From positions 31,070-95,069 of the forward strand of contig JAGOSX010000001.1 of the NCBI GenBank assembly GCA_018062065.1: a stretch of 64,000 nt of DNA. The letters run 5' to 3'. A program made the translations under genes and the position numbers. The DNA comes from Minisyncoccota bacterium. Lineage in GTDB: Bacteria > Patescibacteriota > Minisyncoccia > Phycocordibacterales > UBA9973. The notes under the pieces were generated by a model, which saw nothing but the letters and a program-made list of their open reading frames with translations, was not told the origin of the DNA and did not search any database. Positions 6,520-56,032 of this stretch are shown here, in pieces (position 1 is the stretch's first letter; each line of letters opens with the position of its first letter).

Positions 6520-8364
6520 ATGGGAATTTTTGATACATTATTTGGTAAAAAAGAAAATAAAAACAAAACAGAAGTTGATACTTCTATGCTTTCGGTATTA
6601 CCTGAGCAAATTTATGAATCTGCAACATTAGAACTCAAAGATATAATTGCTCCTTCAGCCTTAAAAATAGAAAGTAAATCTATAAGTTTAGGCGACAAAA
6701 TAGCTAGAACTTTTTTTATAATATCTTATCCTAGATATTTAATTGATAACTGGTTTTCTCCTATCATAAATTTAGATAAAATATTTGATGTATCAATTTT
6801 TATACATCCAATAGACACTTCAATAATATTAAGACAATTCCAAAAAAAGGTAGCCGAAGTTCAAAGTCAAATCAATGATCGTGAAGCACGAGGTATGGTA
6901 CGTGACCCAATGCTAGATACAGCTTATCAAGACTTAGAAGGACTTAGAGATAGCCTAATCCAAGCCCAAGAAAAGATGTTTGACGTGGGGGTTTATATCA
7001 CAGTCTATGCTGATAATGAACTTGAATTATATAAAACAGAAAATGAAATCAAATCTGTACTTGAATCTAAATTAATTTATCTTAAACCAGCTCTTTTTCA
7101 GCAAGAAGACGGTTTTAAAAGTGTTATTCCAATAGGTACAGATTTATTATCTATAAATCAAAAATTAAACTCTGAACCTCTATCGTCTATTTTTCCTTTT
7201 GTTTCTTTTGATTTAACTTCTGACAAAGGAATACTTTATGGTATTAATCGTCACAATTCTAGTTTGGTAATTTTTGATAGATTTTCACTTGAAAACTACA
7301 ACTCAGTAACTTTTGCTAAATCTGGAAGTGGAAAAAGCTATGCAACAAAATTAGAGATTCTCAGATCTTTAATGTTTGATATAGATGTAATAGTTATAGA
7401 CCCAGAGAGGGAATACGAATATTTATCTGAAGCTGTAGGTGGTAGGTACTTTAATATTTCTCTTTCTTCTGATCACCATATAAATCCTTTTGATTTACCT
7501 ATACCTCGTGACGATGAAACTCCAGCTGATGTGCTAAGATCTAACATTATTAATTTGGTTGGTCTTTTTAGATTAATGCTAGGAGGACTTAGCCCAGAAG
7601 AAGATGCATTAGTAGATAGAGCAATATCTGAAACTTATGCTATTAAAGATATTACTCCTGAATCTGATTTTTCTAACATTGAACCGCCTCTACTTTCTGA
7701 TTTTGAGATGGTTCTTTCTGGTATGGAAGGCTCTGAATCAGTAGTCCAAAGATTAGCAAAATACACAAAGGGCTCTTGGTCTACTTTTATCAATAGACCT
7801 TCAAACGTAGATATCAACAAAAAATTCGTGGTTTTTTCAGTTCGCGACATGGAAGACGAATTAAAACCTATAGCTATGTATATAGTTACTCATTTTATAT
7901 GGAATACTATACGCAAAACTTTAAAGAAAAGACTTCTTGTAGTGGACGAGGCTTGGTGGATGATGAAATCTGAAGACACCGCTTCTTTCTTATATTCCTT
8001 AGCTAAAAGGGGAAGAAAATATTACCTGGGACTAGCAACTATCACTCAAGACGCTGCTGACTTTATGAAGTCTCCATATGGAGTGCCTATTATTACCAAC
8101 TCTTCAATTCAATTATTGCTAAAGCAAAGTCCTAGTACCATAGATATATTGCAAAAAACCTTTAACCTTACTGATGAAGAAAAATATCTATTACTGGAAT
8201 CTGGGGTAGGAGAAGGCATCTTCTTTGCTGGATTAAAGCACGTTGCTATTAAAGTTGTAGCGTCTTATACTGAAGATCAAATTATCACCTCAGACCCATC
8301 TCAAATACTATCTATTAAAAAGGAAAGAGAAGACCTTGAAAATGTAGAAATGAATAATAGTTAA
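6520..8364 (+). CDS. VirB4/TraC-family conjugation/T4SS ATPase, C-terminal part containing the ATPase domain
   Basis: 614 aa. Walker A is GSGKSYATK. Walker B/DExx-like motifs are VIVIDPEREY and LLVVDEAWWM. LGDKIARTFFIISYPRYLIDNWFSPI is a typical VirB4 middle region. The two ORFs together total 830 aa, matching a full-length VirB4. Confidence 0.75.
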   Translation: MGIFDTLFGKKENKNKTEVDTSMLSVLPEQIYESATLELKDIIAPSALKIESKSISLGDKIARTFFIISYPRYLIDNWFSPIINLDKIFDVSIFIHPIDTSIILRQFQKKVAEVQSQINDREARGMVRDPMLDTAYQDLEGLRDSLIQAQEKMFDVGVYITVYADNELELYKTENEIKSVLESKLIYLKPALFQQEDGFKSVIPIGTDLLSINQKLNSEPLSSIFPFVSFDLTSDKGILYGINRHNSSLVIFDRFSLENYNSVTFAKSGSGKSYATKLEILRSLMFDIDVIVIDPEREYEYLSEAVGGRYFNISLSSDHHINPFDLPIPRDDETPADVLRSNIINLVGLFRLMLGGLSPEEDALVDRAISETYAIKDITPESDFSNIEPPLLSDFEMVLSGMEGSESVVQRLAKYTKGSWSTFINRPSNVDINKKFVVFSVRDMEDELKPIAMYIVTHFIWNTIRKTLKKRLLVVDEAWWMMKSEDTASFLYSLAKRGRKYYLGLATITQDAADFMKSPYGVPIITNSSIQLLLKQSPSTIDILQKTFNLTDEEKYLLLESGVGEGIFFAGLKHVAIKVVASYTEDQIITSDPSQILSIKKEREDLENVEMNNS

Positions 8365-9358: not shown

Positions 9359-10362
9359 TGAAAAAAATATTTTTTAAAAAAATAATTATATATTTATTTT
9401 TAACAATAACATTATTAGGTGTTTTAAGTCCTAATAATATTGTTTTTGCTCAACTTGATTTTACTGTTACCGACCAAGGAGATCCTAATGGAGACGGTAA
9501 CCCGGGAACAACAACCACGAACGCAACAATAGTAGAACCAGTACCAATTTATAACGAGAAAGAATACGAACCATTAGCTCCATTACCAGGATTAGAAGGT
9601 CCTTTAGATTTTAGCGGAGATTGTGTTTTAGGAGAATATTTAAATATTTTCATAAAAGTCTTCTTATCAATAATCACTGCTATTGCAGTAATTATGATAG
9701 TCTACGGGGGTATTAATTATCTTATGAGCGATTTAGCAAACACTAAAGAAGATGCAAAATCTTCTATCATTAACGCAATTTTAGGAATAATTATTGCTTT
9801 ATCTGCTTATATTATATTAAACACAATAAACCCCAAGCTACTTAATCTTTGTTTAAACAATATTCCAAATCAATCGATATCTGTTAGTGAATTTGACGAA
9901 CCTCAAAAATTAATAAATGGAAAATATGGAAAATATACAGCTAATGCAAAATGGGATGAAAACCTTGCTGGTGATTTTGCTAAATTACCAAGGGGTGTTA
10001 CAGTAAATTCAAAAGAATGTACTTATGTTGGTGAACGTAGTTGTACATCCACAAGAGGTTTAAATACATCTATTGTAAACAATTTGGCAAATTCATGCTG
10101 GGAAAGTAACGGTAAAAAAGATTGTAATATTATCATCACAGGAGGAACAGAAAACTGGTTACATAGTGCAAATGGGGGTCATGAACCAGGTAGTCCAGTA
10201 ATAGATGTAAGAGCCAGTACCGATGTTAATTTTTATATAACGGGTAAAGCTACTCCTCCTACAAAAGATATAACTATTACAAAAAATGGTGTAAAATATA
10301 GTTATGAGGTCGCTCATTCAAACGAAAATACAACAGGCGCACATTGGCACGTTCATTATTAA
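9358..10362 (+). CDS. VirB2/TrbC-like pilin domain (signal peptide plus two-helix hairpin) fused to a C-terminal Cys-containing domain carrying LAS/M15-type zinc-peptidase-like motifs
   Basis: 334 aa with a signal peptide. Hydrophobic helix IFIKVFLSIITAIAVIMIVYGGINYL, then loop MSDLANTKEDAKSS, then helix IINAILGIIIALSAYIILNTI give the TrbC/VirB2 topology. The C-terminal ~170 aa has six Cys, GGHEPGSPVID (H-x7-D) and a terminal HWHVHY (H-x-H). These resemble the Zn ligands of LAS/hedgehog-type D,D-peptidases (M15). Confidence 0.4.
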   Translation: MKKIFFKKIIIYLFLTITLLGVLSPNNIVFAQLDFTVTDQGDPNGDGNPGTTTTNATIVEPVPIYNEKEYEPLAPLPGLEGPLDFSGDCVLGEYLNIFIKVFLSIITAIAVIMIVYGGINYLMSDLANTKEDAKSSIINAILGIIIALSAYIILNTINPKLLNLCLNNIPNQSISVSEFDEPQKLINGKYGKYTANAKWDENLAGDFAKLPRGVTVNSKECTYVGERSCTSTRGLNTSIVNNLANSCWESNGKKDCNIIITGGTENWLHSANGGHEPGSPVIDVRASTDVNFYITGKATPPTKDITITKNGVKYSYEVAHSNENTTGAHWHVHY

Positions 10363-10367
10363 ACCAA

Positions 10368-11690
10368 ATGTCTAAAAAATTTATCATTTTAATAACAATC
10401 TTAATTCTAATTATAGTTTTGTTTTTTGGCTTTTCTTATTTAACAAAAGATAATACTAATACAAATCAAAATACCGAAAATAGTAATAAAAACTTTTTTT
10501 CCGATATTTTTAATTTCGGAAATATAACTCAAAATGAAACTGTAAACAACATAGTTGATTTTGTTACAGGCAACAATGAAGAAAAAGAAGGAGATATAGA
10601 AGAAGTTAAAAAACTTTATAAAATATCTAGCATGCCTATTACTGGTTATGGTATTTTAGAAAAAGAAGTTTACATTGAGGTTCCAGATTTACTTCCAGAA
10701 GAAGTCGATTTTAATGAAGGCAATCAAAATCAAACTGAAGCCCCTAAGACTGAATTTATTTCAGTTATTCGTTACGCGGACAAGCGTAACGGAAATATTT
10801 ACGAAAACCAAATTAACAAAACAGAAGAAAGAAAGTATTCAAATACAGAAATATTCAAAGTACACGAATCTTTATTTACAAATAGAAACACAATCATGCG
10901 TTATCTAAAAAATAACGATACTATCGTAACCTTCTTAGGGGAAATATCTAAAGACGTAATAGGAGGTGACTCAGAAAATGCTCATGAAATCTTTGGCTCT
11001 TTTTTACCAGACGGCATAAAAGATATTTCAGTATCTAAAGAAAAAAACGAATTCTTTTATTTAACAAATAGTAGAGATGGGGTAATAGGTAATTTAATAA
11101 ATGAAAAAGGGGAAAAGATTCAAGTTTTTAATTCTTCTTTCTCAGAATGGAATTCTCATTTCCCTAATAAAGATTATGTTATTTTGAATACAAGACCTTC
11201 AGGATTAGTAGATGGTTTTAGTTATATTTTAAACCTTAAAAATAAAGATTTTAATAAAATACTAGGCAACATAAAAGGCTTAACAACTCTAAGTAATAAT
11301 ACTTTATCTACTATATTATATTCAGATAATAATCTATCAATAAAATTATTTGATCTTAGTAGAGAAGAAACTAGAAATCTAAGATTAAGAACTCATCCTG
11401 AAAAATGTGTATGGAGCAATGATAACGTAATCTTGTATTGTGCTATACCAAAAGAAATCGAAGCTGATTTAATTTACCCTGATGCTTGGTATCAAGGTGA
11501 GGTGAGTTATAACGACGAGATTTGGAAAATAGATACTTACACTGGAGCAAAAACAAAATTAATCGATCCAAATACTTTATATGAGAATGAAAATATAGAT
11601 GCTATTAATTTATCTTTAGATAAAGACGAAAAAACTTTATTCTTTATGAATAAAGTTGATTCATATCTTTGGGCTCTTCGTTTAGATTAA
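10368..11690 (+). CDS. N-terminally membrane-anchored hypothetical protein (last gene of the T4SS-like locus)
   Basis: The ATG at 10368 (MSKKFIILITILILIIVLFF...) gives a start directly followed by a TM helix. The TTG at 10344 in the ORF track overlaps the upstream gene by 19 nt and is less likely. Total ~440 aa. Confidence 0.4.
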   Translation: MSKKFIILITILILIIVLFFGFSYLTKDNTNTNQNTENSNKNFFSDIFNFGNITQNETVNNIVDFVTGNNEEKEGDIEEVKKLYKISSMPITGYGILEKEVYIEVPDLLPEEVDFNEGNQNQTEAPKTEFISVIRYADKRNGNIYENQINKTEERKYSNTEIFKVHESLFTNRNTIMRYLKNNDTIVTFLGEISKDVIGGDSENAHEIFGSFLPDGIKDISVSKEKNEFFYLTNSRDGVIGNLINEKGEKIQVFNSSFSEWNSHFPNKDYVILNTRPSGLVDGFSYILNLKNKDFNKILGNIKGLTTLSNNTLSTILYSDNNLSIKLFDLSREETRNLRLRTHPEKCVWSNDNVILYCAIPKEIEADLIYPDAWYQGEVSYNDEIWKIDTYTGAKTKLIDPNTLYENENIDAINLSLDKDEKTLFFMNKVDSYLWALRLD

Positions 11691-13553: not shown

Positions 13554-13565
13554 ATTGAGCTAAAA

Positions 13566-13709
13566 CTACTTTTTCTTTACAGCTAAAGACTTACGTCCTT
13601 TTCTCATTCTCTTTAAAATAACCTTTTTACCATTTGAAGTCTTAGAACGAGACAAAAAACCGTGAGTTTTAGCTCTTTTTCTTTTATTTGGCTTGTATGT
13701 TTGTGACAT
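13566..13709 (-). CDS. rpmH: 50S ribosomal protein L34 (not in the ORF track because it is under 60 aa)
   Basis: I translated the minus strand by hand as MSQTYKPNKRKRAKTHGFLSRSKTSNGKKVILKRMRKGRKSLAVKKK. This is the L34 signature (KRxxTHGF...GRKxL). Confidence 0.8.
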   Translation of the reverse strand: MSQTYKPNKRKRAKTHGFLSRSKTSNGKKVILKRMRKGRKSLAVKKK

Positions 13710-13840
13710 GTTGGTAGTATAACAGATTTTTGATTTAAGTCAAAGCAGGGGAGTAATAAAAGGTTATCAACAATTTATCAACATAGTTAATAACTTTCGT
13801 ATATTACAGGCAGTTTTAAAAAAATAGTATAATAAACGAA

Positions 13841-15187
13841 ATGGATACAAAACAACTTTGGAAAAACTGTTTGAATGAAATTGAGCTAGGTATATCAAAA
13901 GCCAACTTTAGTACTTGGTTTAAAAATACTTCAATTTTAAAAGAAGAGGGTGGAATTATTTATATTGCGGTACCCAACGAATTCGTTAGAGATTGGCTTT
14001 TTAATAAATATCACAAATTAATAACTAAAACTATTGCTGATATATATGAGAATATGCGAGCTGTGGAATACGTTATTTCTAAAATCGAAATAAAAGAAGA
14101 AGAAAATAAAACTAACACAACCGAAACCACTGTAAACAAAGAATTACCCCTAAAAGACTTATATATAAGCCCAGAAGACAATTTAAACCCGAGATATAGA
14201 TTTGATTCTTTTATTGTTGGTGGTTTTAATGAACTTGCATATGCTGCCTCTCAAGCAATCATAGAAAACCCTGGAACAAAATATAACCCTTTCTTTGTAT
14301 ATGGAAATACAGGTCTAGGTAAAACTCACCTACTTCAAGCTGTAGGGAACTCTATTAAAGAAAAATACCAGAACAAGAAAGTTCATTATATTACCCTAGA
14401 ACGCTTTGCTACTGATTTTATTAATTCATTGCAATCAAACAAAGCTAACTCTTTTAAAGAAAAATACCGAAAATATGATCTTTTAATTATAGACGATATT
14501 CAATTCATCGGTAAAATGGAGAAAATCCAAGAAGAATTATTTCACACTTTTAATACCTTTTATGAAAACAATAAACAGATTATCTTTTCTTCAGACAAGC
14601 ACCCTAATTATATACCTGAATTAGCAGACAGATTAAAATCTAGATTTGCTCAAGGTATGATAGTTGACGTTTCTGAGCCTGAATATGAATCAAGATTAGC
14701 TATTCTAAAGGTTAAATTACGAGACCAAGGGGTTAGTTTGGATGAAGATGTAGTAAATTACATAGCAGCTACTATAAGAGGCAATATACGCGAATTAGAA
14801 GGTAGCCTGAACGCAATTGTAATGCAATATAAAATCAAAAATAAACCTCTTTCTCTTTTGGATGTTAAAAATATCTTAAAAAACAACATAAAACCTAAAA
14901 AAAGCATTTCTGTGAAAGACGTAGTTAAAGTTGTTAGTGACCACTACAACATAGAAGAAGAAACTGTTTACGACAAAACCAGAAGAAAAGAAATAGTTAA
15001 AGCTCGCCAAGTGGTAATGTACCTACTTAGAGAAGATTTTAATGTTTCATATCCTTTGATTGGTCAGAAGCTAGGGGGAAGAGACCACACAACCGTCATT
15101 CATTCATATTTAAAAATTAAAGAAGATTTAAAAAGCGATCCACAATTAATGCAAGAAATAGAGAATATAAGAATTATGTTTAAATAG
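13841..15187 (+). CDS. dnaA: Chromosomal replication initiator DnaA
   Basis: 448 aa. Walker A is GNTGLGKTHLL, Walker B is LLIIDDIQF, and the C-terminal domain is the DnaA-box-binding domain. Gene order is rpmH<-...->dnaA-dnaN. Confidence 0.95.
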   Translation: MDTKQLWKNCLNEIELGISKANFSTWFKNTSILKEEGGIIYIAVPNEFVRDWLFNKYHKLITKTIADIYENMRAVEYVISKIEIKEEENKTNTTETTVNKELPLKDLYISPEDNLNPRYRFDSFIVGGFNELAYAASQAIIENPGTKYNPFFVYGNTGLGKTHLLQAVGNSIKEKYQNKKVHYITLERFATDFINSLQSNKANSFKEKYRKYDLLIIDDIQFIGKMEKIQEELFHTFNTFYENNKQIIFSSDKHPNYIPELADRLKSRFAQGMIVDVSEPEYESRLAILKVKLRDQGVSLDEDVVNYIAATIRGNIRELEGSLNAIVMQYKIKNKPLSLLDVKNILKNNIKPKKSISVKDVVKVVSDHYNIEEETVYDKTRRKEIVKARQVVMYLLREDFNVSYPLIGQKLGGRDHTTVIHSYLKIKEDLKSDPQLMQEIENIRIMFK

Positions 15188-15400
15188 TGTGGATAAGATA
15201 TGAAAAAGTAGTGAATTAAGTTTAATAAAAAATAATTATTATTAAAATAAAAATAAATATACACAAATTAAAATAAAAATTCAAAAGTTATCAAGTTTCA
15301 AAAAACCAAATAACCTTTACAAAATATAATTAAAATAGACTTATCCACTTATCCACAATACTAACAATATTAATAAATTAAATATATAAAATATAAACAT
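15188..15400. promoter_or_regulatory. Candidate oriC/DnaA-box cluster in the dnaA-dnaN spacer. Perfect boxes TGTGGATAA (15188-15196), TTATCCACT (15341-15349) and TTATCCACA (15349-15357), plus a very AT-rich unwinding-type stretch
   Basis: I read the boxes directly from the sequence. The spacer is >85% A+T between them. Weaker TTATCAACA boxes also lie upstream of dnaA at ~13765-13790. Confidence 0.55.
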
Positions 15401-16498
15401 ATGAAGGTAGAATGTGAAATCGACAAAATCAAAAATGGAATTCTCTTAGCAGAAAAGATTACTGGTAAGAATTTAACATTACCAGTTTTAAGTTCTATTT
15501 TATTAGAAGCAACAAATAAGAGTTTAAAATTAAAAGCAATGAATTTAAGTTTAGGTATTGAAATAGAAATACCTGCTAAAATTTCAGAAGAAGGAATTTT
15601 GGCAATTTCTGGTAATTCTTTAGCTTCAGTTTTTTCTAATATTATTCAAAAAGAAAATATAATTCTAGAAGGAGAAGAAGGAAATCTTTTAATTAAAACC
15701 AAAAAGAATAAAATTAAACTAAAAGGAATGCCTTATGAAGATTTTCCTACTATACCAGTTGTTGCGGGAGACAGTTTTGAAATTGAATCTAAAAAAATAA
15801 TAGAAGGTATAAAATCTGTTTACTATAGTGCTTCGGTTTCCGATATTAAACCAGAAATTTCTAGTGTTTATGTTTATTCCAAAGAGAGTGATTTGGTTTT
15901 TGTTTCAACAGACTCTTTTCGTTTAGCTGAAAAGAAAATTAAACTTAAAAAGAGTATTGAGAATTTTAATGTATTAATCCCTTTTAAGAATATAGCCGAA
16001 ATAATGAGAGTTATTGGAGAAAATAATCAAAATATAAATATTTGTTTTAATAAAAATCAAATATCTTTTTCTTTAGATAATATTTATTTAACTTCTCGTA
16101 TTATTGATGGAATTTATCCTGACTATAGGCAAATTATTCCAAAAGAGAGTAAGACTGAAGTTGTCCTCCTTAAACAAGATTTATTAAATGCTTTAAAAAT
16201 TTCTAATATTTTTTCTGATAAATTTAATCAATTAAACCTATCTATTAATACCAAAGATAAGATTTTTGAATTTTCTTCGTCAAATAATGATGTTGGTGAA
16301 AATAAAACTTATTTGGATGCAGTATTAAAAGGGGAGGATATTAATTTGTCTTTTAATTATAAGTATTTTTTGGATGCTTTCGCTTCTTTGTCTACCGATA
16401 GTGTTTCTATTAAATTAGATGGCCCTCAAAAACCTATGGTTATTAATTCTGTTTCTGATAATTCTTTCACTTATTTAATAATGCCAATGAATAGATAA
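15401..16498 (+). CDS. dnaN: DNA polymerase III beta sliding clamp
   Basis: 365 aa with a three-domain beta-clamp pattern, located immediately after dnaA. Confidence 0.9.
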   Translation: MKVECEIDKIKNGILLAEKITGKNLTLPVLSSILLEATNKSLKLKAMNLSLGIEIEIPAKISEEGILAISGNSLASVFSNIIQKENIILEGEEGNLLIKTKKNKIKLKGMPYEDFPTIPVVAGDSFEIESKKIIEGIKSVYYSASVSDIKPEISSVYVYSKESDLVFVSTDSFRLAEKKIKLKKSIENFNVLIPFKNIAEIMRVIGENNQNINICFNKNQISFSLDNIYLTSRIIDGIYPDYRQIIPKESKTEVVLLKQDLLNALKISNIFSDKFNQLNLSINTKDKIFEFSSSNNDVGENKTYLDAVLKGEDINLSFNYKYFLDAFASLSTDSVSIKLDGPQKPMVINSVSDNSFTYLIMPMNR

Positions 16499-22691: not shown

Positions 22692-22749
22692 CTTGCCCTG
22701 TCAGTCGCGACTGACAGGGCAAGCCCCGTTACTCGGGAGTGACAGGGTT
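22692..22749. repeat. Family A palindrome (perfect: cttgccctgtcagtcgcgactgacagggcaag) followed by a degenerate second copy (ccccgttactcgggagtgacaggg). It is a convergent terminator between the candidate ncRNA and the LOG gene
   Basis: A 32-nt perfect inverted repeat, related to the copies at 1772, 26094, 41725 and 56007 through the shared core cctgtca-CTCGCGAG/GTCGCGAC-tgacagg. Confidence 0.6.
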
Positions 22750-23408: not shown

Positions 23409-25106
23409 TTATTCTTCGTTTAAGTCTACCACGCTCAGCACTTCTTCAAAAGAGGTGATACCGTTTAATATTTTTACTACCCCATCTTCACGCATCGATA
23501 ATATCCCTTGCTTATTTGCGATTTGTTTTATTTCTCTTTCTGAAGGATTATTAGGCATAATACGCTCTATATTCTCATCGGTTTTAATAGCTTCGAATAT
23601 TCCGATGCGTCCTTTGTAACCTGTATTATTACATTCTTCGCAACCTCCTGCTTCGTATAATTTCAAACTCATATTCATATCTAAGTTGTATTTTTTTAAA
23701 TCTTTACCGTTTTCTTGCATCTTTTCGAGAATTACTTTGATTGTATTTGATTCATTTTCTTTAACCACTTTTTCTTTTTTGCATTTATCACAAAGCTTAC
23801 GTACAAGTCTTTGAGCTATTGATAAGGAAAGCGCAGAAGGCATAATTTTAGGATTTACTTCAAGGTCTGAAAGTCTTGGTATTACTCCAGCCGCATTATT
23901 GGTATGGAGTGTTGAGAAAACTAAGTGTCCAGTAAGAGCAGACTGCACGGCAGTTTTAGCAGTTTCACTATCTCTAATTTCTCCAACCATTATTACGTCT
24001 GGGTCTTGGCGGAGAGCAGCTTTAAGTCCTTCTGCAAAACCGTATTCTTTAGCGTCACTAATTTGAGTTTGAGTTATGCCTTTTAATCTATATTCGACTG
24101 GGTCTTCGATAGTTATGATATTGATTTCACTTGAATATATTTTACGCAAGAACGCATAAAGAGTAGTAGTTTTACCAGATCCGGTAGGTCCTGTTACTAG
24201 GATAAGTCCGTTTGGTTTTGCAATTTCTTTTAATACAATATCATAAAGATAAGAATCCATTCCCATATCTTCGATATTGATTTGAATAGATTTTGGATCA
24301 AGTATTCTCATAACAATAGTTTCTCCGTATGATCCTGGTATAAGCGAAGTACGAATACTTATTTCTGATTCATCTTCCATAATTGCAAATCTTCCGTCTT
24401 GGGCTCCGAGAGAAGTTAATTTCATTCCTGAAAGTAATTTAATGCGAGAGTTAAGTAGATGATAAATATTAGTACTAAAGAATTCTATATCTTGGAGTAC
24501 TCCATCTAAACGCAAGCGCAATTTCGCTCCGTTTTCTTCGGGTTTGATATGAATATCAGAAGCATTAATAGCAATAGCTCCTGCAAGGATAATCTCGAGT
24601 AAGCGAGTAATTTTATGAGTCTTACCGCTTTCCATTTCTTCGTTTAAAGCAGTTTTGATATCTTGCATGCGTTTAATATTTTTTGCAGTATCGCGCAAAA
24701 TCTCAGAAGAAATATCAATTCCACCAATTTTAGAATTTTCAGCCATAGAGAGTTCTTTATACCGATCCCAAACTTTCTCTATACTACCAAGTGAAGTCAT
24801 ATAAAATACAGGTTCTAATTCTTTGCGTTTCATGTCTTCAATTAATTCGTTTTTTAATTCTTCGGTCGGAGTACGGAGTGCAATATAGATTTTCTTACCA
24901 ATAATTTTAAAGGGAGCTACTCCGCGCTCGTGTGCATCGCGTTCGTCTATCGCTCGCAAAGCTTCATTATCTATACCTACCCGGTATAGATCAGCGTAGG
25001 GGAGGTTGTACTTTGTTTCGGCTAGCATAGAAACTAAATCTTCTTCTTCTTTTCTCTTAAGATCTGCTAGTTGTTTATTTTGTTTATCTTCATCAAAGTC
25101 GTGCAT
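23409..25106 (-). CDS. pilB: Type IV pilus assembly ATPase PilB/GspE family
   Basis: 565 aa. Walker A is GPTGSGKTTTLYA. The Asp and His boxes and a C-terminal tetra-Cys motif (CDKC...CEEC) are present. Confidence 0.85.
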   Translation of the reverse strand: MHDFDEDKQNKQLADLKRKEEEDLVSMLAETKYNLPYADLYRVGIDNEALRAIDERDAHERGVAPFKIIGKKIYIALRTPTEELKNELIEDMKRKELEPVFYMTSLGSIEKVWDRYKELSMAENSKIGGIDISSEILRDTAKNIKRMQDIKTALNEEMESGKTHKITRLLEIILAGAIAINASDIHIKPEENGAKLRLRLDGVLQDIEFFSTNIYHLLNSRIKLLSGMKLTSLGAQDGRFAIMEDESEISIRTSLIPGSYGETIVMRILDPKSIQINIEDMGMDSYLYDIVLKEIAKPNGLILVTGPTGSGKTTTLYAFLRKIYSSEINIITIEDPVEYRLKGITQTQISDAKEYGFAEGLKAALRQDPDVIMVGEIRDSETAKTAVQSALTGHLVFSTLHTNNAAGVIPRLSDLEVNPKIMPSALSLSIAQRLVRKLCDKCKKEKVVKENESNTIKVILEKMQENGKDLKKYNLDMNMSLKLYEAGGCEECNNTGYKGRIGIFEAIKTDENIERIMPNNPSEREIKQIANKQGILSMREDGVVKILNGITSFEEVLSVVDLNEE

Positions 25107-26093: not shown

Positions 26094-26119
26094 ATCCTGT
26101 CGCTCGCGAGTGACAGGAT
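26094..26119. repeat. Family A palindrome copy 3: atcctgtcgctcgcgagtgacaggat, directly abutting family B copy 3
   Basis: Inverted repeat with one G·U-type mismatch. The core CTCGCGAG is shared with the copies at 41725 and 56007. Confidence 0.6.
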
Positions 26120-51062: not shown

Positions 51063-51156
51063 TTTTTTTTAAAAATTTGATTTAAGGTAATAATACTAAA
51101 AATATGAGTTTAGTCAATACCAAATAAAAAAGCCCTATTTGTAGGGCTTTTTAAAT

Positions 51157-52887
51157 TTATCCTTCGCAAGAGATACAAACGTTTAGTCCTGCGTCATCGG
51201 CTTCTTTTTGAGCCTTCTTTTTCATTTCTACTTCTTGAAGTTTCTTTCTACCGAATTGTTGAGCTGCGTTCATACTGTGTTGATAGTAAAGAGTTTTTAC
51301 TCCTTTCTCCCAAGCATATAAATAAAGCGCATTTAAATCTTTAGTAGGCATAGTAGGATCAATCATAAGGTTTAAGGATTGAGATTGATCAATGAATTTT
51401 TGTCTATCAGCAGCTTGATCTATAATTGCACGTTGGTCGATTTCACTAAATGTTCGAAATACCATTTTCTCGTGTTCAGTTAAACCGTCTAGATGTTGCA
51501 CGGAGCCGTCATTGTCGCGAATACTTGCCCAGGTTTCAGTAGTATTCATTCCTTTTTCTTCAAGTAGTTTTTCTAAAGTTGGGTTCTTGATTGTTACTTT
51601 CATTTTATCTACGTCTTTAACGAATGCATTAGACATAATAGGCTCTATACTTTGAGATACTTGGCCCAAGATGAATGCAGACGAAGTAGTAGGAGCGATA
51701 GCTATTAAGGTAGTATTTCTGCGTCCGTAGCCTTTTAGTACTTCTGGTTCTCCGTAATCTTTTGCGAGTTCACGAGAAGCGTTATAAGCTTTTTCATTGA
51801 TTAAAGCGAAGATTTCTTTATTAAGTTCAGTCGCTTCTTTGCTTTCAAAAGGAATATTGTTCTCTTGAAGGAAAGTATGCCAACCTAAAACTCCAAGTCC
51901 TAAAGCGCGGTGCTCACTAGCGAATTTATATGCTCTTTGCATAAAATAAAAAGCACTTTGTTTTTGAGGATCTTCACTATTTTTAAGAATATCTAGTCTT
52001 TCAATAAAAGCTGAGATAACAGTATCTAAGAACATTACTAAAGTTTCTACTGCGTCTGTGTCTTTCCATTCTTTATAGTGACGTAAATTCATAGAAGATA
52101 AACAGCAAACAAAAGAAATCTCATCAGAAGTAGGTAAGCAAATTTCAGAGCAAAGGTTTGAACCGTAGATTTTCATATTTTTATCTTTATATACGTCTAC
52201 AGTGTTGTTGTTAACTGTATCAGTAAATAAAATATAAGGGTAACCGATTTCTGTTCGACGTTGAATGATTTTTGCCCAAATCTTTCTTTTCTCTTGATCT
52301 CCACCTACCATATCTTGTAGCCATTTATCAGTAACAGTAACCGCATAAGTAGATTCTTGAATAGGGTGACCTTCTTTACCGATATTTAAAAATTCTTCGA
52401 TATCTGCATGCTCAACCGGAAGATAAGGTGCAAAGTGACCTCGGCGGACTGAACCCTGACTAACAATATTGATTAGGTTATCAAAAAGTTCCATAAAGTG
52501 AACTGCACCTGAAGAATGACCGTTATCTTTAATAACAGCTCCACGAGGACGAAGTCCCGCAAAGTGACCTGCAGTACCTCCACCGTATTTAGTCATCATA
52601 CCAACTTCAGCGTGAGTATATAAAATACGAGACATATCGTCCGCAATATAACTCGAGAAACAACTTATAGGTAATCCTCTTTCTAGCCCATAGTTAGACC
52701 AAACAGGTGAGGCAAGAGAGTAAAATCCACGAGACATATAATCATAAAACTTGTCTGCGAAGCCTGGTTTATTTAAATATTTTTCTGCTATATTAGCGAT
52801 TTCACGAATACGCTCTTCGGCAGTAACGCCTTCCATCAAGTAACCCTTTGCTAAAAACTTTCTACTATTTTCATTTAACCAGTACAT
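51157..52887 (-). CDS. nrdA: Class I ribonucleotide reductase catalytic subunit (NrdA-like), short form lacking an N-terminal ATP-cone
   Basis: 576 aa. The active-site motif is NLCSEI (N-x-C-x-E), with the upstream redox Cys in PISCFSS. The C-terminal Cys pair is NVCISCEG. The protein begins directly with catalytic-domain sequence. Confidence 0.75.
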   Translation of the reverse strand: MYWLNENSRKFLAKGYLMEGVTAEERIREIANIAEKYLNKPGFADKFYDYMSRGFYSLASPVWSNYGLERGLPISCFSSYIADDMSRILYTHAEVGMMTKYGGGTAGHFAGLRPRGAVIKDNGHSSGAVHFMELFDNLINIVSQGSVRRGHFAPYLPVEHADIEEFLNIGKEGHPIQESTYAVTVTDKWLQDMVGGDQEKRKIWAKIIQRRTEIGYPYILFTDTVNNNTVDVYKDKNMKIYGSNLCSEICLPTSDEISFVCCLSSMNLRHYKEWKDTDAVETLVMFLDTVISAFIERLDILKNSEDPQKQSAFYFMQRAYKFASEHRALGLGVLGWHTFLQENNIPFESKEATELNKEIFALINEKAYNASRELAKDYGEPEVLKGYGRRNTTLIAIAPTTSSAFILGQVSQSIEPIMSNAFVKDVDKMKVTIKNPTLEKLLEEKGMNTTETWASIRDNDGSVQHLDGLTEHEKMVFRTFSEIDQRAIIDQAADRQKFIDQSQSLNLMIDPTMPTKDLNALYLYAWEKGVKTLYYQHSMNAAQQFGRKKLQEVEMKKKAQKEADDAGLNVCISCEG

Positions 52888-52919
52888 ATTTATATTTTTT
52901 ATGATTATATTTTTAATAA

Positions 52920-54236
52920 TTAAAACAGATCCTCACTTGTAATACTTTTACTTCTTTTATCGTAATTGATTGATTTTTTGTTAAAGAAGTCTCCGTGCTT
53001 AGTTGCGATAACTTCATCATTAAACCAATCAGATTCTTTAAGGAACATTTCGTCAATTTCAAAGATTTTATTAATTCCTATACTTTGTAAAGAATTATTG
53101 AATCTTTGCTTGATAAACTCTAAGACTACTACTTTTGGCATAAAATCTAATTCTCCTTTTTCAAAAATCCAATCCACTACTAACTTTTCTGCTTCAAAAG
53201 CTTCTTGGCATTGTTTTATAATTGCATTTTCAAATTCTTTATCGAACCATTCAGGATGTTCTTCTCTTAGGATATTTATAATATCTATTCCAAATAAACC
53301 GTGAATTTGTTCTTCTTTAGAAGTTGCTTCGACTGCGTTTGAGATACCTTTAAATAAATTTTTGTATTTATTAAAAGACATCATTATTAAGAATTGAGAG
53401 AATAGTGAAACGTGTTCTATAAATAAAGAGAATAGTAGTATTGATTGAGTGTATTCTCGATTATCTTCACTTGATCGGTTTTTAATCGCTTTTTCTAAGT
53501 AATTTACTCTGTTCATCAAAGCCGGAATATTTTTTATATTACTAAACTCAGTATTTAATCCTAAAAGTTCTAGTAGGTGAGAGTAGGCGTCTGTGTGGCG
53601 AACTTCACTTTCTGCAAAAGTTGCTCCAACTGCACCGATTTCTGGTTTTGGCATTTTTTTATAGATATCTCCCCAGAAAGTTTTTACTGCTACCTCGATT
53701 TGAGCAATAGCTAGCATGCAGTGCTTGATAGCAGATTTTTCGTTTTCTGAAACATTAACTTTGAAGTCTTGAATATCGCTAACAAAGTTAAATTCAGTAT
53801 GGATCCAATAAGAGTGACGGATAGCACTAACGTATTCGTATAATTCAGGGTATTCGTAAGGTTTTAATTGTATTCTTTTTTTGAAAAGATCTCTCTTTCT
53901 TTCTTCAGCTCTTTGTTGTCTATAGATAATATAGGCTTTTGCTACTTCAAAAAAGTCTTTTTCCATCAAACTTTGCTCTACGATATCTTGAACTTCTTCA
54001 ACTCCAGGGCAAACTTCGACTTCTTTTTCATTATTTTCTAAAGTAACAGCAAATTTTTCGTTTAATTTTTGAGATACCAAGTGAGCAACTTTATGAGCGT
54101 CTTCTGTGGTACCAGTCCCAACTGAAACCATAGCCTTATATATAGCACTCTCTATCTTTTTAAGGTCAAAATCTTGAATACTTTGATCTCTTTTCTTTAT
54201 ACAGGTAACAAGATTGTTTTTATTGTTGGTAGACAT
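52920..54236 (-). CDS. nrdB: Ribonucleotide reductase radical-generating subunit NrdB with an N-terminal ATP-cone domain
   Basis: Start set at the ATG at 54236 (MSTNNKNN...) rather than the TTG at 54320. The ATP-cone is LVTCIKKRDQSIQDFDLKKIESAIYKAM. The ferritin-like metal ligands are ESEVRHTDAY (E-x2-H-x3-Y), FIEHVSLFSQF and SKEEQIHGLFG. Confidence 0.8.
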   Translation of the reverse strand: MSTNNKNNLVTCIKKRDQSIQDFDLKKIESAIYKAMVSVGTGTTEDAHKVAHLVSQKLNEKFAVTLENNEKEVEVCPGVEEVQDIVEQSLMEKDFFEVAKAYIIYRQQRAEERKRDLFKKRIQLKPYEYPELYEYVSAIRHSYWIHTEFNFVSDIQDFKVNVSENEKSAIKHCMLAIAQIEVAVKTFWGDIYKKMPKPEIGAVGATFAESEVRHTDAYSHLLELLGLNTEFSNIKNIPALMNRVNYLEKAIKNRSSEDNREYTQSILLFSLFIEHVSLFSQFLIMMSFNKYKNLFKGISNAVEATSKEEQIHGLFGIDIINILREEHPEWFDKEFENAIIKQCQEAFEAEKLVVDWIFEKGELDFMPKVVVLEFIKQRFNNSLQSIGINKIFEIDEMFLKESDWFNDEVIATKHGDFFNKKSINYDKRSKSITSEDLF

Positions 54237-54286
54237 ATTTTTTAAATTAAACTTATAAATTTTTTTATTAAAATTAACCTTTAGTA

Positions 54287-54300
54287 TGATAATTTTATCA
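54287..54300. promoter_or_regulatory. Fur-box-like palindrome TGATAA-TT-TTATCA, ~50 bp upstream of nrdB
   Basis: A perfect 6-2-6 inverted repeat of the GATAAT Fur half-site type. The fur gene is immediately upstream on the same strand. Confidence 0.35.
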
Positions 54301-54367
54301 TAGTTACGAAGCCCGAGCAAAAACTAAAATAACCTTATTTAATAAGGTTATTTTATAAATTTAATAC

Positions 54368-54376
54368 TTATCCACA
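54368..54376. promoter_or_regulatory. Isolated perfect DnaA box TTATCCACA between fur and nrdB
   Basis: An exact 9-mer. In E. coli, nrdAB expression is DnaA-regulated through boxes in its promoter. Confidence 0.35.
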
Positions 54377-54385
54377 TTTTAATTT

Positions 54386-54811
54386 TTATTTTCTTTCGCA
54401 ACTCTCGCAAATACCGAACAAATCAAAGGAATGGTGAGTGATTTTTTGGAATTTTTTTGATTTTTTAAGTGCATTTAACACTAATTTTTCGCTATCGCAA
54501 CCAGTAAAATCTTCAACTGTATTGCATTTTATACAAATCATATGATGATGATCATCATGCTCGTCTATTAATTCATATTCTGCCTCTCTTTTACCCGTAT
54601 CTACCTTTTTAATTAAGCCTTTTTCTAAAAAACTATCTAAAGTACGATAAATCGTGACTTGATCCAGTTTATTCTTCTTTAATTTTTCAAAAATAGTATT
54701 AGCACTGAGGGGAGTTTTAGTTTTAGATAGAAAATCTAAGAGCAAAAGACGAACTTCAGTCTTTTTCAATTGAGCTTTATTTAGTATTTGTTCAAAATTG
54801 TTTGCCTTCAT
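54386..54811 (-). CDS. fur: Fur-family metal-responsive transcriptional regulator
   Basis: 141 aa. The winged-helix region is VTIYRTLDSF. The metal sites are HHHMICIKC...CDSE...CESC. Confidence 0.8.
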   Translation of the reverse strand: MKANNFEQILNKAQLKKTEVRLLLLDFLSKTKTPLSANTIFEKLKKNKLDQVTIYRTLDSFLEKGLIKKVDTGKREAEYELIDEHDDHHHMICIKCNTVEDFTGCDSEKLVLNALKKSKKFQKITHHSFDLFGICESCERK

Positions 54812-55924
54812 TTATTTCTCAAAAGTTATTCGTACTAATTCAGGAGTATTGAAAAGCCTAGAAGGTACGCTAGCCGTACCGACTCCTGAAGTAGTTAAGA
54901 CTTGCAAGTCTTGATAAGGATGAAGTCCGTAAGTATATTCTTTGTATATAGAGTAAACGATATAATTGAGAGGCCAGAATTGTCCACGATGAGTATGACC
55001 TGAGACTTGGAGATCAATTTTATTTTGATTTGCTACGCTAAGAGCGGTAGGAGCGTGATTGATAAGTATAGTAAATTTATTCTCGTCTATGTTTAAAGAT
55101 TTAAGAGTATTGTCTACGGAAGCTAAATTTGCGGTATTATTTTCTCCTCGATTTTCTCTATATTTTACTCCTACTATATCAATATCTCCATAACTAACCT
55201 TTTTATCTTCGAGGGTTACTACTCCCGCATTAGCAATAGATTCTAAAAATCCACGATAATCTCCGTATTCTTCGTGATTTCCAGGAGCCATAAAGACAGG
55301 GTATTTAGCTGTTAATTTTTTCCAACTTTCAGTTATGAGAGTTGTGTCATTTTTCGGTCCATCATAAAAGTCTCCTCCGTGCAAAACGAAATCCGGATTA
55401 AGAGAAATAATTTTTTTTACCACTTTATCAGAAAATCCTTTATGATTGATTTTTCCAAAGTGAGTATCAGCTACTAGTATAGCTTTTTTGCCTACGAGAC
55501 TTTCAGGAACCTTTGGATCTTTGATAGTATAATCAACAACTTTAATAAAACGAGCTTGTATATATCCAAAAGTTGCTAAGCCTAAAGATAGTGCTAAAAA
55601 TATATAAGAGAAATAATACGGAATATTAACTTTAAAAACAAAACCTAAAATATAAATCGTACCTAAAGCTAAAGCCCCAAAGAATAAATAAAGTCCGTAT
55701 CCAGCTATCATTTGCATTACTCGGTGAAAGATAGAAGGTAGTAAACCGCTAAAGCCAAGTAGCATGCTTAAAGCAAAAAGTAGGGGAATTAATAAAAATA
55801 TAAAAAATACTAGTTTATTTTGCTCCGGACTTAGTCTTAATCCGTAACCGTAAACTTTAGTATTTAAATACGAAATACCTATTAAAAAACTTGCAATCAA
55901 TATGCCGAAAAATATCTTTATCAT
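54812..55924 (-). CDS. Membrane-anchored calcineurin-like metallophosphoesterase
   Basis: 370 aa. The N-terminal TM helices are followed by the MPE motifs LVADTHFG, HGGDFYDG and APGNHE. Confidence 0.75.
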   Translation of the reverse strand: MIKIFFGILIASFLIGISYLNTKVYGYGLRLSPEQNKLVFFIFLLIPLLFALSMLLGFSGLLPSIFHRVMQMIAGYGLYLFFGALALGTIYILGFVFKVNIPYYFSYIFLALSLGLATFGYIQARFIKVVDYTIKDPKVPESLVGKKAILVADTHFGKINHKGFSDKVVKKIISLNPDFVLHGGDFYDGPKNDTTLITESWKKLTAKYPVFMAPGNHEEYGDYRGFLESIANAGVVTLEDKKVSYGDIDIVGVKYRENRGENNTANLASVDNTLKSLNIDENKFTILINHAPTALSVANQNKIDLQVSGHTHRGQFWPLNYIVYSIYKEYTYGLHPYQDLQVLTTSGVGTASVPSRLFNTPELVRITFEK

Positions 55925-56006: not shown

Positions 56007-56032
56007 ATCCTGTCTCTCGCGAGTGACGGGAT
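56007..56032. repeat. Family A palindrome copy 5: atcctgtctctcgcgagtgacgggat, in a divergent intergenic region
   Basis: An inverted repeat with wobble positions. The CTCGCGAG core is shared. Confidence 0.5.

Follow-up and report, generated by a model that had tools for sequence, protein, structure and literature searches.

A predicted class Id ribonucleotide reductase operon with an ATP-cone on NrdB and a conserved upstream DnaA box in a Paceibacteria bacterium

The window analysed here is a stretch of 64,000 nt of contig JAGOSX010000001.1 with a G+C content of approximately 31%, and all coordinates are given in window numbering. Its minus strand carries two adjacent genes, nrdB and nrdA, which lie 32 nt apart and encode the radical-generating and the catalytic subunit of a ribonucleotide reductase (RNR). 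This confirmed the gene order given in a preliminary description of the locus that had been made from the sequence. The features of the locus are listed in Table 1. The window also contains the chromosomal genes dnaA, dnaN, polA, uvrABC, ruvBC and a photolyase gene, and the public records of the nrdBA proteins are proteins from metagenome-assembled genomes (MAGs) labelled 'Candidatus Pacebacteria/Paceibacterota bacterium'. Identical contigs are present in the samples SRR11088468 and SRR34217542. The host is a bacterium of the Paceibacteria, within the Candidate Phyla Radiation (CPR) or Patescibacteria. A viral origin of the locus was rejected on the basis of the chromosomal context and of the best viral NrdB, which was merely 57% identical.

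Table 1. Coordinates of the features at the nrdBA locus (window numbering).
Feature	Position	Strand	Description
nrdA	51157..52887	-	576 aa, cone-less catalytic subunit (NrdAi); TIGR02510, PRK09102, PDB 6DQX
nrdB	52920..54236	-	438 aa, radical-generating subunit of the predicted class Id RNR (NrdBi) with N-terminal ATP-cone; Pfam, PDB 5OLK, MBP9802766.1
Ferritin-like dimetal core of NrdB	53055..53876	-	aa 121-394; PF00268
ATP-cone domain of NrdB	53907..54200	-	aa 13-110; PF03477
Predicted sigma-70 promoter of nrdBA	54292..54320	-	-35 TTGCTC (54320-54315), 17-nt spacer, extended -10 TGATAAAAT (54300-54292); read from the sequence
Inverted repeat, 8-2-8	54285..54302		TATGATAA-NN-TTATCATA; 'Fur box' of the preliminary description; overlaps the -10 element
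Perfect 15-1-15 hairpin with T-run	54325..54355	-	read as intrinsic terminator of the upstream fur gene
Perfect DnaA box	54368..54376	+	TTATCCACA (TGTGGATAA on the nrdB strand); 132-140 nt 5' of the ATG, about 70 nt 5' of the -10
Fur-family regulator gene	54386..54811	-	141 aa; PF01475, 71.6 bits; neighbouring gene, second gene of an operon with a metallophosphoesterase gene (54812-55924)
Terminator-like hairpin, operon end	51127..51152	-	directly after the nrdA stop; 11 pairs, 4 G-C, T-run

Search against Pfam showed that NrdB joins an ATP-cone and a ferritin-like core contiguously in one open reading frame (ORF). The ATP-cone profile PF03477 matched with 67.1 bits against a cutoff of 25.8 (E-value 2e-18) over profile positions 3-87 of 88, which bore out the cone that had been proposed on NrdB, and Ribonuc_red_sm (PF00268) matched the core with 198.6 bits. 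Comparison with PDB 5OLK, the NrdB of the flavobacterium Leeuwenhoekiella blandensis (L. blandensis), gave a single alignment over aa 11-438 with the cone included (E-value 2e-182). The identity between the two proteins was 67% overall, with 52% in the cone (50 of 97 residues identical), 71% in the core and 76% in the C-terminal tail, the part described as binding NrdA.

Residue conservation was scored on a set of 78 sequences made up of the window NrdB, the L. blandensis NrdB and 76 Paceibacteria homologues. The published features of NrdBi are, in L. blandensis numbering, a Glu as first metal ligand, W177, K174 and the pair Y207/T294, in which the Tyr at the radical position is held off the metal site by the conserved Thr (PMC5794259, PMC6754362). 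The residues of all these features were found in the window NrdB. The most N-terminal metal ligand is a Glu and not an Asp (E181, aligned with E170 of L. blandensis), and with E211/H214, E274 and E309/H312 all six ligands are kept. The NrdBi Trp is W188 with the Lys of the subgroup three residues earlier (K185), and the non-radical Tyr at the radical position (Y218) is accompanied by its Thr partner (T305). Each of these ten residues named was 100% conserved. In the cone, residues K15, R16, F23, E87, K100, I103, R106 and R113 and the helix-4 motif A..YI.YR..R...R were conserved in at least 95% of the sequences. The residues of L. blandensis that form the cone-cone interface or contact phosphate (D73, M80, K89, I92, I93, R95 and R102) were kept as D84, M91, K100, I103, I104, R106 and R113, as expected of an ATP-cone::NrdB fusion of the L. 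blandensis type. Because the cone residues are conserved across the Paceibacteria sequences, the cone appears to be functional and under selection and not a remnant.

For NrdA, Pfam showed only the all-alpha N domain and the barrel, with no match to the ATP-cone PF03477. The protein passed the equivalog model TIGR02510 'NrdE-prime' with 771 bits (cutoff 602) and PRK09102 with 714 bits (cutoff 620), and it matched the class Id alpha structures PDB 6DQX (E-value 5e-214) and 6DQW (E-value 5e-182). Its length falls in the range of about 570-600 aa of the short NrdAi class. The frame 5' of the nrdA ATG is open for only about 15 codons, which overlap the end of nrdB, so a hidden cone exon is excluded and the description of NrdA as short and cone-less was upheld. 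No NrdI-like gene was found in the nrdBA operon.

The nrdB gene lies in a minus-strand ORF (52920..54320) which opens with a TTG and contains the ATG at 54236. The latter start, to which the preliminary description had corrected the gene, is supported because the NCBI protein MBP9802766.1 is the identical 438-aa form, because the relatives have an NrdB of 430-440 aa and because the ORF extended to the TTG would include the predicted promoter, the TTG itself being the first triplet of the predicted -35 hexamer. The TTG-extended model is almost certainly wrong. A 466-aa NrdB model starting at this TTG also circulates in public collections, and its extension (54237-54320) spans the predicted promoter.

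On the nrdB strand, the fur stop codon is followed after 9 nt by the DnaA box and then by a hairpin with T-run, the putative -35 and extended -10 elements, an AT-rich 5' untranslated region (UTR) of about 50 nt and the ATG. An alignment of seven promoters (the window and six relatives with an NrdB 78-86% identical to that of the window) was invariant at exactly three places, namely the DnaA box, TG-TAA-ATTA of the extended -10 and short T/A-rich blocks of the 5' UTR. The extended -10 with the pattern TGnTAA(A/G)AT was invariant in all seven loci and was found again at the same position in a distant clade. The hairpin between the DnaA box and the promoter lies within a fold of -16 kcal/mol (z = -2.4). 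Compensatory changes in its stem were found in the four loci L003-L006, which have a co-directional upstream gene, and the hairpin was degenerate in loci with a divergent upstream gene. It was read as the terminator of the upstream gene because the compensatory changes occurred only where that gene is co-directional, and a role as regulatory RNA was rejected since the hairpin decays where the upstream gene is divergent. Search of positions 54200-54420 against Rfam at a relaxed threshold returned only noise and no known RNA 5' of nrdB. No NrdR box was seen by eye in the nrdB promoter, for which no formal search was made.

A scan with one genome per species produced 179 relatives, and the following locus counts rest on the best 80 of these. 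The order nrdB-nrdA with the cone on NrdB was found in all 80. The NrdB match reached query residue 1-13 in 80 of 80, showing that the cone was present, and nrdA followed directly and started at query residue 1-3 in every case, showing that NrdA had no cone. Almost all of the 80 were labelled as Paceibacteria, Nomurabacteria, Kaiserbacteria, Parcubacteria or Patescibacteria MAGs; many labels read 'Saccharibacteria', and there were also one Absconditabacterales, one 'Gammaproteobacteria' bin and a few unclassified genomes. The cone-on-beta class Id operon is the rule here: the kind of enzyme is known, and what is new is the lineage, in which it is widespread. In a collection of 5.8 billion proteins, the best 120 protein clusters all combined PF00268 with PF03477, while only some tens of clusters at 50% identity spanned the junction of cone and core. 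The ATP-cone::NrdB fusion is abundant but not deeply diverse. Five proteins with this junction (P0154, P0159, P0160, P0174 and P0191) were 737-1019 aa long, two to three times the normal length, and possibly contain inteins, NrdB-NrdA fusions or extra N-terminal domains.

The fusion was first described from 93 RefSeq sequences, 70 of them from Flavobacteriales, and was called rare (PMC5794259), and a follow-up spoke of 'a few additional' fusions (PMC6187632). RefSeq leaves out most MAGs; among Paceibacteria, at least 80 species-level genomes have the supposedly rare design as their standard RNR operon. The suggestion that this arrangement had not been noted in the lineage is plausible, as no paper pairing Patescibacteria, Parcubacteria or CPR with ATP-cone or NrdB was found in the library searched, although proteins of this lineage are already public with precomputed ATP-cone matches. 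The L. blandensis NrdB was 57-67% identical to the Paceibacteria NrdBs, and the Paceibacteria clades were in the same range to each other, with 64-86% identity to the window NrdB. Phage contigs (IMG/VR, L083-L159) carried NrdBi relatives with a cone at about 35 loci (52-57% identity) and cone-less relatives at about 40 loci (57-68% identity over the core). These identity ranges and the phage relatives are consistent with horizontal spread, for which phages are a possible vehicle between CPR bacteria and Bacteroidota. The distribution changes the picture of where allostery by a cone on NrdB is used and points to transfer among CPR bacteria, Bacteroidota and phages.

The perfect DnaA box that had been noticed upstream of nrdB was confirmed and is one of four in the window, where 0.5 were expected; all four are intergenic. 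Identical perfect boxes at 15188-15196 and 15349-15357 mark both ends of the AT-rich spacer between dnaA and dnaN, and for this reason TTATCCACA is taken as the organism's own DnaA consensus. Upstream regions were compared for 78 loci, the DNA of related loci amounting to 786 kb. A perfect box was present within 460 bp 5' of nrdB in 39 of the 78 loci, and about 37-39 of the 50 perfect boxes in the 786 kb (approximately three quarters) lay 5' of nrdB. The coding DNA of the related loci had 0.006 perfect boxes per kb, and the non-coding DNA was approximately 40 to 120 times denser. The box stayed with nrdB whether the upstream gene was fur, a PNPOx-like gene, a divergent glycosyltransferase-4 gene or mscL. 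In a distant clade the box was found in the opposite orientation and always 80-83 bp from the extended -10, with divergent sequence in between. Two sequence features, the organism's consensus 9-mer and its conservation independent of the neighbouring gene, point to a DnaA-regulated promoter, and a functional DnaA site acting on nrdBA is somewhat favoured.

Such control would be conventional, since DnaA control of nrdAB is established in E. coli and has been proposed for B. subtilis and Caulobacter (PMC8203912). Like the E. coli nrdAB promoter, the window has a consensus DnaA box 5' of the promoter of an RNR operon, which would link the supply of deoxynucleotides (dNTPs) to the replication initiator. 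Unlike E. coli, which has three boxes near the promoter, the window nrdBA has a single perfect box about 70 nt 5' of the -10; the RNR subclass and the phylum also differ, and the window site is known from its sequence.

Alternatively, the box could be a generic intergenic site for DnaA titration or a 3'-end element of the upstream gene which stands near nrdB by coincidence. The intergenic position of all four boxes of the window would fit this explanation, and so would the two others that come right after stop codons (dnaA and ruvC), the box 5' of secA in seven loci and the single box of nrdBA, compared with the three of E. coli nrdAB. A titration site or 3'-end element would not, however, be expected to track nrdB through four kinds of upstream gene, to account for the bulk of the perfect boxes in the related DNA by its position 5' of nrdB, or to keep a fixed spacing to the promoter in one clade. 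This explanation is the best of the alternatives but is considered improbable, and action of DnaA on nrdBA is preferred.

Other observations concern DnaA boxes away from nrdB. Apart from the nrdB upstream region, perfect boxes recurred at one place only in the 786 kb, about 290-410 bp 5' of a SecA gene that lies downstream of nrdA; the loci concerned belong to an intermediate clade of Paceibacteria (L016, L017, L020, L025, L027, L035 and L041). In the window, dnaA (13841-15187) and dnaN (15401-16498) are separated by a spacer with an AT-rich stretch of about 150 nt between the two perfect boxes, and one-mismatch boxes occur at 15341-15349 and, upstream of dnaA, at 13764 and 13775. The replication origin probably lies at 13554-15400, approximately 39 kb from nrdBA. 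The motif AATAACCTTW was found six times (13617, 15309, 54328, 54343, 56868 and 59528), where 1.8 copies would be expected. Perfect or one-mismatch boxes lie within about 40 to 150 nt of four of these copies (upstream of dnaA, in the dnaA-dnaN spacer and in the hairpin upstream of nrdB), and a related AAAAnCCTTATTTTA follows the DnaA box after about 30 nt in the distant clade. The motif may be the site of a second protein or a coincidence.

The preliminary description had also reported a Fur-box-like palindrome upstream of nrdB and had derived from it, together with the DnaA box and the fur gene, a metal- and replication-linked control of the operon. The replication part is supported by the conservation of the DnaA box. 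The palindrome TGATAATTTTATCA at 54287-54300 is real and occurs once in the window against 0.02 expected, and the gene upstream does encode a Fur-family protein, but the site is not convincing as a Fur box. Fur boxes of B. subtilis have the 7-1-7 form TGATAATnATTATCA, and those of E. coli a 19-bp consensus. The outer hexamers TGATAA/TTATCA of the window element are identical to the half-site hexamers of Fur boxes, whereas the element reads TGATAAA-ATTATCA without a central base and is thus 7-0-7 (or 6-2-6), one base shorter between the half-sites. Its left arm coincides with the extended -10 (TGnTAAAAT), which is the portion kept in the relatives. The right arm was kept solely in L003 and was lost in L004, L005, L006, L008 and L010.

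An operator of the adjacent Fur-family protein (of Fur, Mur or PerR type), by which nrdBA would be repressed according to metal or peroxide status, is nevertheless suggested by a perfect 8-2-8 repeat that sits exactly over the -10, the classic position for a repressor, with Fur-like half-sites and a Fur-family gene immediately upstream. L003 even has a 10-2-10 version at the orthologous place, and such control would suit an enzyme dependent on Mn and superoxide, given the requirement of class Id RNRs for Mn and for reduced oxygen species (PMC6754362). Against it stand the spacing and the conservation, which is merely that of the extended -10, the right arm being lost in L004 and L006 even though fur adjoins nrdB there. 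With up to three mismatches, the 7-1-7 pattern gave nothing 5' of nrdB, and its sole nearby match (54543-54557) was inside the fur coding sequence. Neither this pattern nor the 6-2-6 pattern with up to two mismatches gave an informative second site in the 64-kb window, and the metallophosphoesterase-fur operon had no Fur-type site at its promoter. Inverted repeats whose arms reach 8 nt or more abound in the AT-rich window, which has 59 of them compared with 13-21 in resamples. In addition, fur adjoins nrdB in only three of the 80 relatives (L003, L004 and L006), and the subtype of the protein is not settled by NCBIfam, where PerR was the best match with 75 bits, far under the cutoff of 180. 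Assignment of the palindrome to Fur is not supported, and a Fur-operated nrdBA promoter is regarded as decidedly unlikely. An operator for some dimeric repressor specific to the sub-lineage is possible, since the palindrome of L003 is too long for chance. The metal part of the proposed control is thus not supported.

The resemblance of the enzyme to a characterised flavobacterial one, as noted at the outset, was found to be close. Like the class Id RNR of L. blandensis (PDB 5OLK, 6SF4; PMC5794259), the window enzyme combines an NrdB of N-terminal cone, short linker, ferritin core and disordered C-terminal tail with a cone-less NrdA of about 575 aa, and it shares the metal ligands, the K/W/Y/T residues and the interface residues. 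The two differ in host (a flavobacterium and a CPR bacterium) and in two small insertions of 4 and 3 residues in the window cone. Furthermore, L. blandensis also has a class II RNR, whereas no second RNR lies within the 64 kb of the window. The NrdB structures 6CWO, 6CWP and 6CWQ are reportedly from Flavobacterium johnsoniae (Rose et al. 2018/2019), and 6DQW is a class Id NrdA structure. The F. johnsoniae class Id RNR has the same NrdBi core (E-value 2e-96) and a minimal NrdA (E-value 5e-182), but its NrdB is without an ATP-cone (PMC6754362). The Grx::ATP-cone::NrdB of Facklamia ignava likewise has a cone on an Mn2(IV,III) NrdBi, in which dATP drives the formation of beta4 (PMC6187632); it differs in its glutaredoxin domain, as Pfam showed only cone and core in the window NrdB.

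Overall, the locus is read as an aerobic class Id RNR operon (NrdAi/NrdBi) regulated through the cone, with the DnaA box most likely tuning its expression, and we give this explanation as a whole a probability of roughly 80%. The hallmarks of class Id are an Mn2(IV,III) cofactor, the absence of a tyrosyl radical and activation by superoxide or H2O2 without NrdI, and switching of the oligomer by ATP and dATP has been described together with Mn2(IV,III) for cone-bearing NrdB (PMC5794259, PMC6754362). By homology to L. blandensis, the window NrdB would carry Mn2(IV,III) and no tyrosyl radical. ATP bound to the cone would leave NrdB as a dimer that forms an active alpha2beta2 complex with the cone-less NrdA. 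Binding of two dATP per cone would instead create cone-cone contacts and NrdB beta4 tetramers, which would lock NrdA into alpha2beta4 or alpha4beta4 complexes that are inactive. Transcription would begin at the extended -10 promoter, some 50 nt 5' of the nrdB start codon, and end at the hairpin after nrdA, and DnaA would most likely tune it through the conserved box, as for E. coli nrdAB.

Several points weigh against this explanation. The behaviour of the window NrdB and NrdA as an enzyme is derived by homology to L. blandensis, and the nrdBA promoter and transcription start are predictions. The Asp76 named in the L. blandensis paper is ambiguous, as the reconstructed chain has E76/D77, which correspond to E87/Q88 in the window NrdB. 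Within the clade to which the window belongs, the spacing of box and promoter ranges between 55 and 88 bp. The 39 of 78 loci with a perfect box share descent and represent perhaps three independent architectures and not 39 events. Finally, the box follows the stop codon of fur and precedes the terminator of that gene, a position in which it could serve fur or titrate DnaA. That the ATP-cone is a decayed remnant on an enzyme without dATP regulation is highly improbable: degenerate cones are known in other RNRs and the cone is the least conserved part of NrdB (19 of 98 positions at least 90% conserved, compared with 151 of 274 in the core), but the Pfam profile is matched over its full length, the KR motif, F23, the helix-4 motif and the L. 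blandensis interface residues are retained and the cone is kept in 80 of 80 relatives.

The presence of class Id operons in these hosts implies that dNTP synthesis in many CPR bacteria, often thought to be anaerobic fermenters, depends on manganese and on oxidants derived from oxygen. The conserved DnaA box ties the start of replication to the supply of dNTPs in a simple way that lends itself to testing, in bacteria for which growth in isolation is not yet possible. Every organism with an ATP-cone::NrdB has been said to possess another RNR (PMC5794259). In the 64-kb window, no second RNR, NrdR or other ATP-cone protein was found by phmmer searches of all six-frame ORFs of 60 aa or longer, with the cone, the NrdB core and NrdA as queries, or by Pfam on the large ORFs. 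Tentatively, the cone-on-beta class Id enzyme could be the only RNR of the Paceibacteria, which are ultra-small bacteria with genomes of about 0.6-1 Mb, although this is rather less likely than not being so. If it were, the published generalisation would be contradicted, and an oxygen-requiring enzyme dependent on Mn and superoxide and wired to DnaA would be the sole gate for the supply of DNA precursors, a gate that in sister clades would also be wired to a hitherto undescribed leader, structured and about 200 nt long.

This leader was observed at 35 loci with an NrdB 64-67% identical to that of the window (for example L026:5768-5988, L038:5782-5988, L059:5795-6000 and L069:2157-2365), where it occupies about 170-330 nt between an extended -10 promoter and the nrdB start. 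It combines a hairpin on the 5' side (CACACGA..TCGTGTG, of which covarying variants occur) with a conserved segment GGAGGTAAG and, on the 3' side, a long stem of 15 pairs, 11 of them with compensatory changes. RNAalifold gave 21 pairs for the leader, 11 with compensatory changes. In a model-based alignment, 95% of the cells were paired and 12 of 21 pairs had double changes, a result reached by 0 of 500 shuffles. A covariance model found the leader only directly 5' of nrdB in the 35 related loci, and a search with it did not find the leader in the window and its close relatives. No match in Rfam was obtained at the gathering threshold or at relaxed thresholds. The leader looks like a candidate for an undescribed cis-regulatory RNA or riboswitch of the RNR operon. 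In another clade (L016-L031, L035, L037, L041, L047 and L052), a -10-like TATACT or TATAAT precedes the nrdB ATG by only about 10 nt, as would fit an mRNA that is nearly leaderless. Across three clades the 5' region of nrdBA thus takes three forms, namely a UTR that is short and AT-rich, a near-leaderless start and a long structured leader.

Elsewhere in the window, two ORFs of 822 aa (1845-4313) and 448 aa (10344-11690) had no Pfam match, and the genes at 6520-8364, 23409-25106 and 43230-45494 encode a TraG/VirD4-like P-loop protein, a type II/IV secretion ATPase and a heavy-metal P-type ATPase with an HMA domain, respectively. A family of G+C-rich palindromes with the core GTCAsTCGCGAsTGAC was found at five sites (1771-1804, 22692-22723, 26099-26114, 41730-41745 and 56012-56027) against 0.01 expected. 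All of these lie in or at the edge of intergenic DNA, one of them in the divergent promoter region of the metallophosphoesterase-fur operon, and two are perfect at 32-34 bp. They could be the operator of a regulator or a repetitive extragenic palindromic (REP)-like element.

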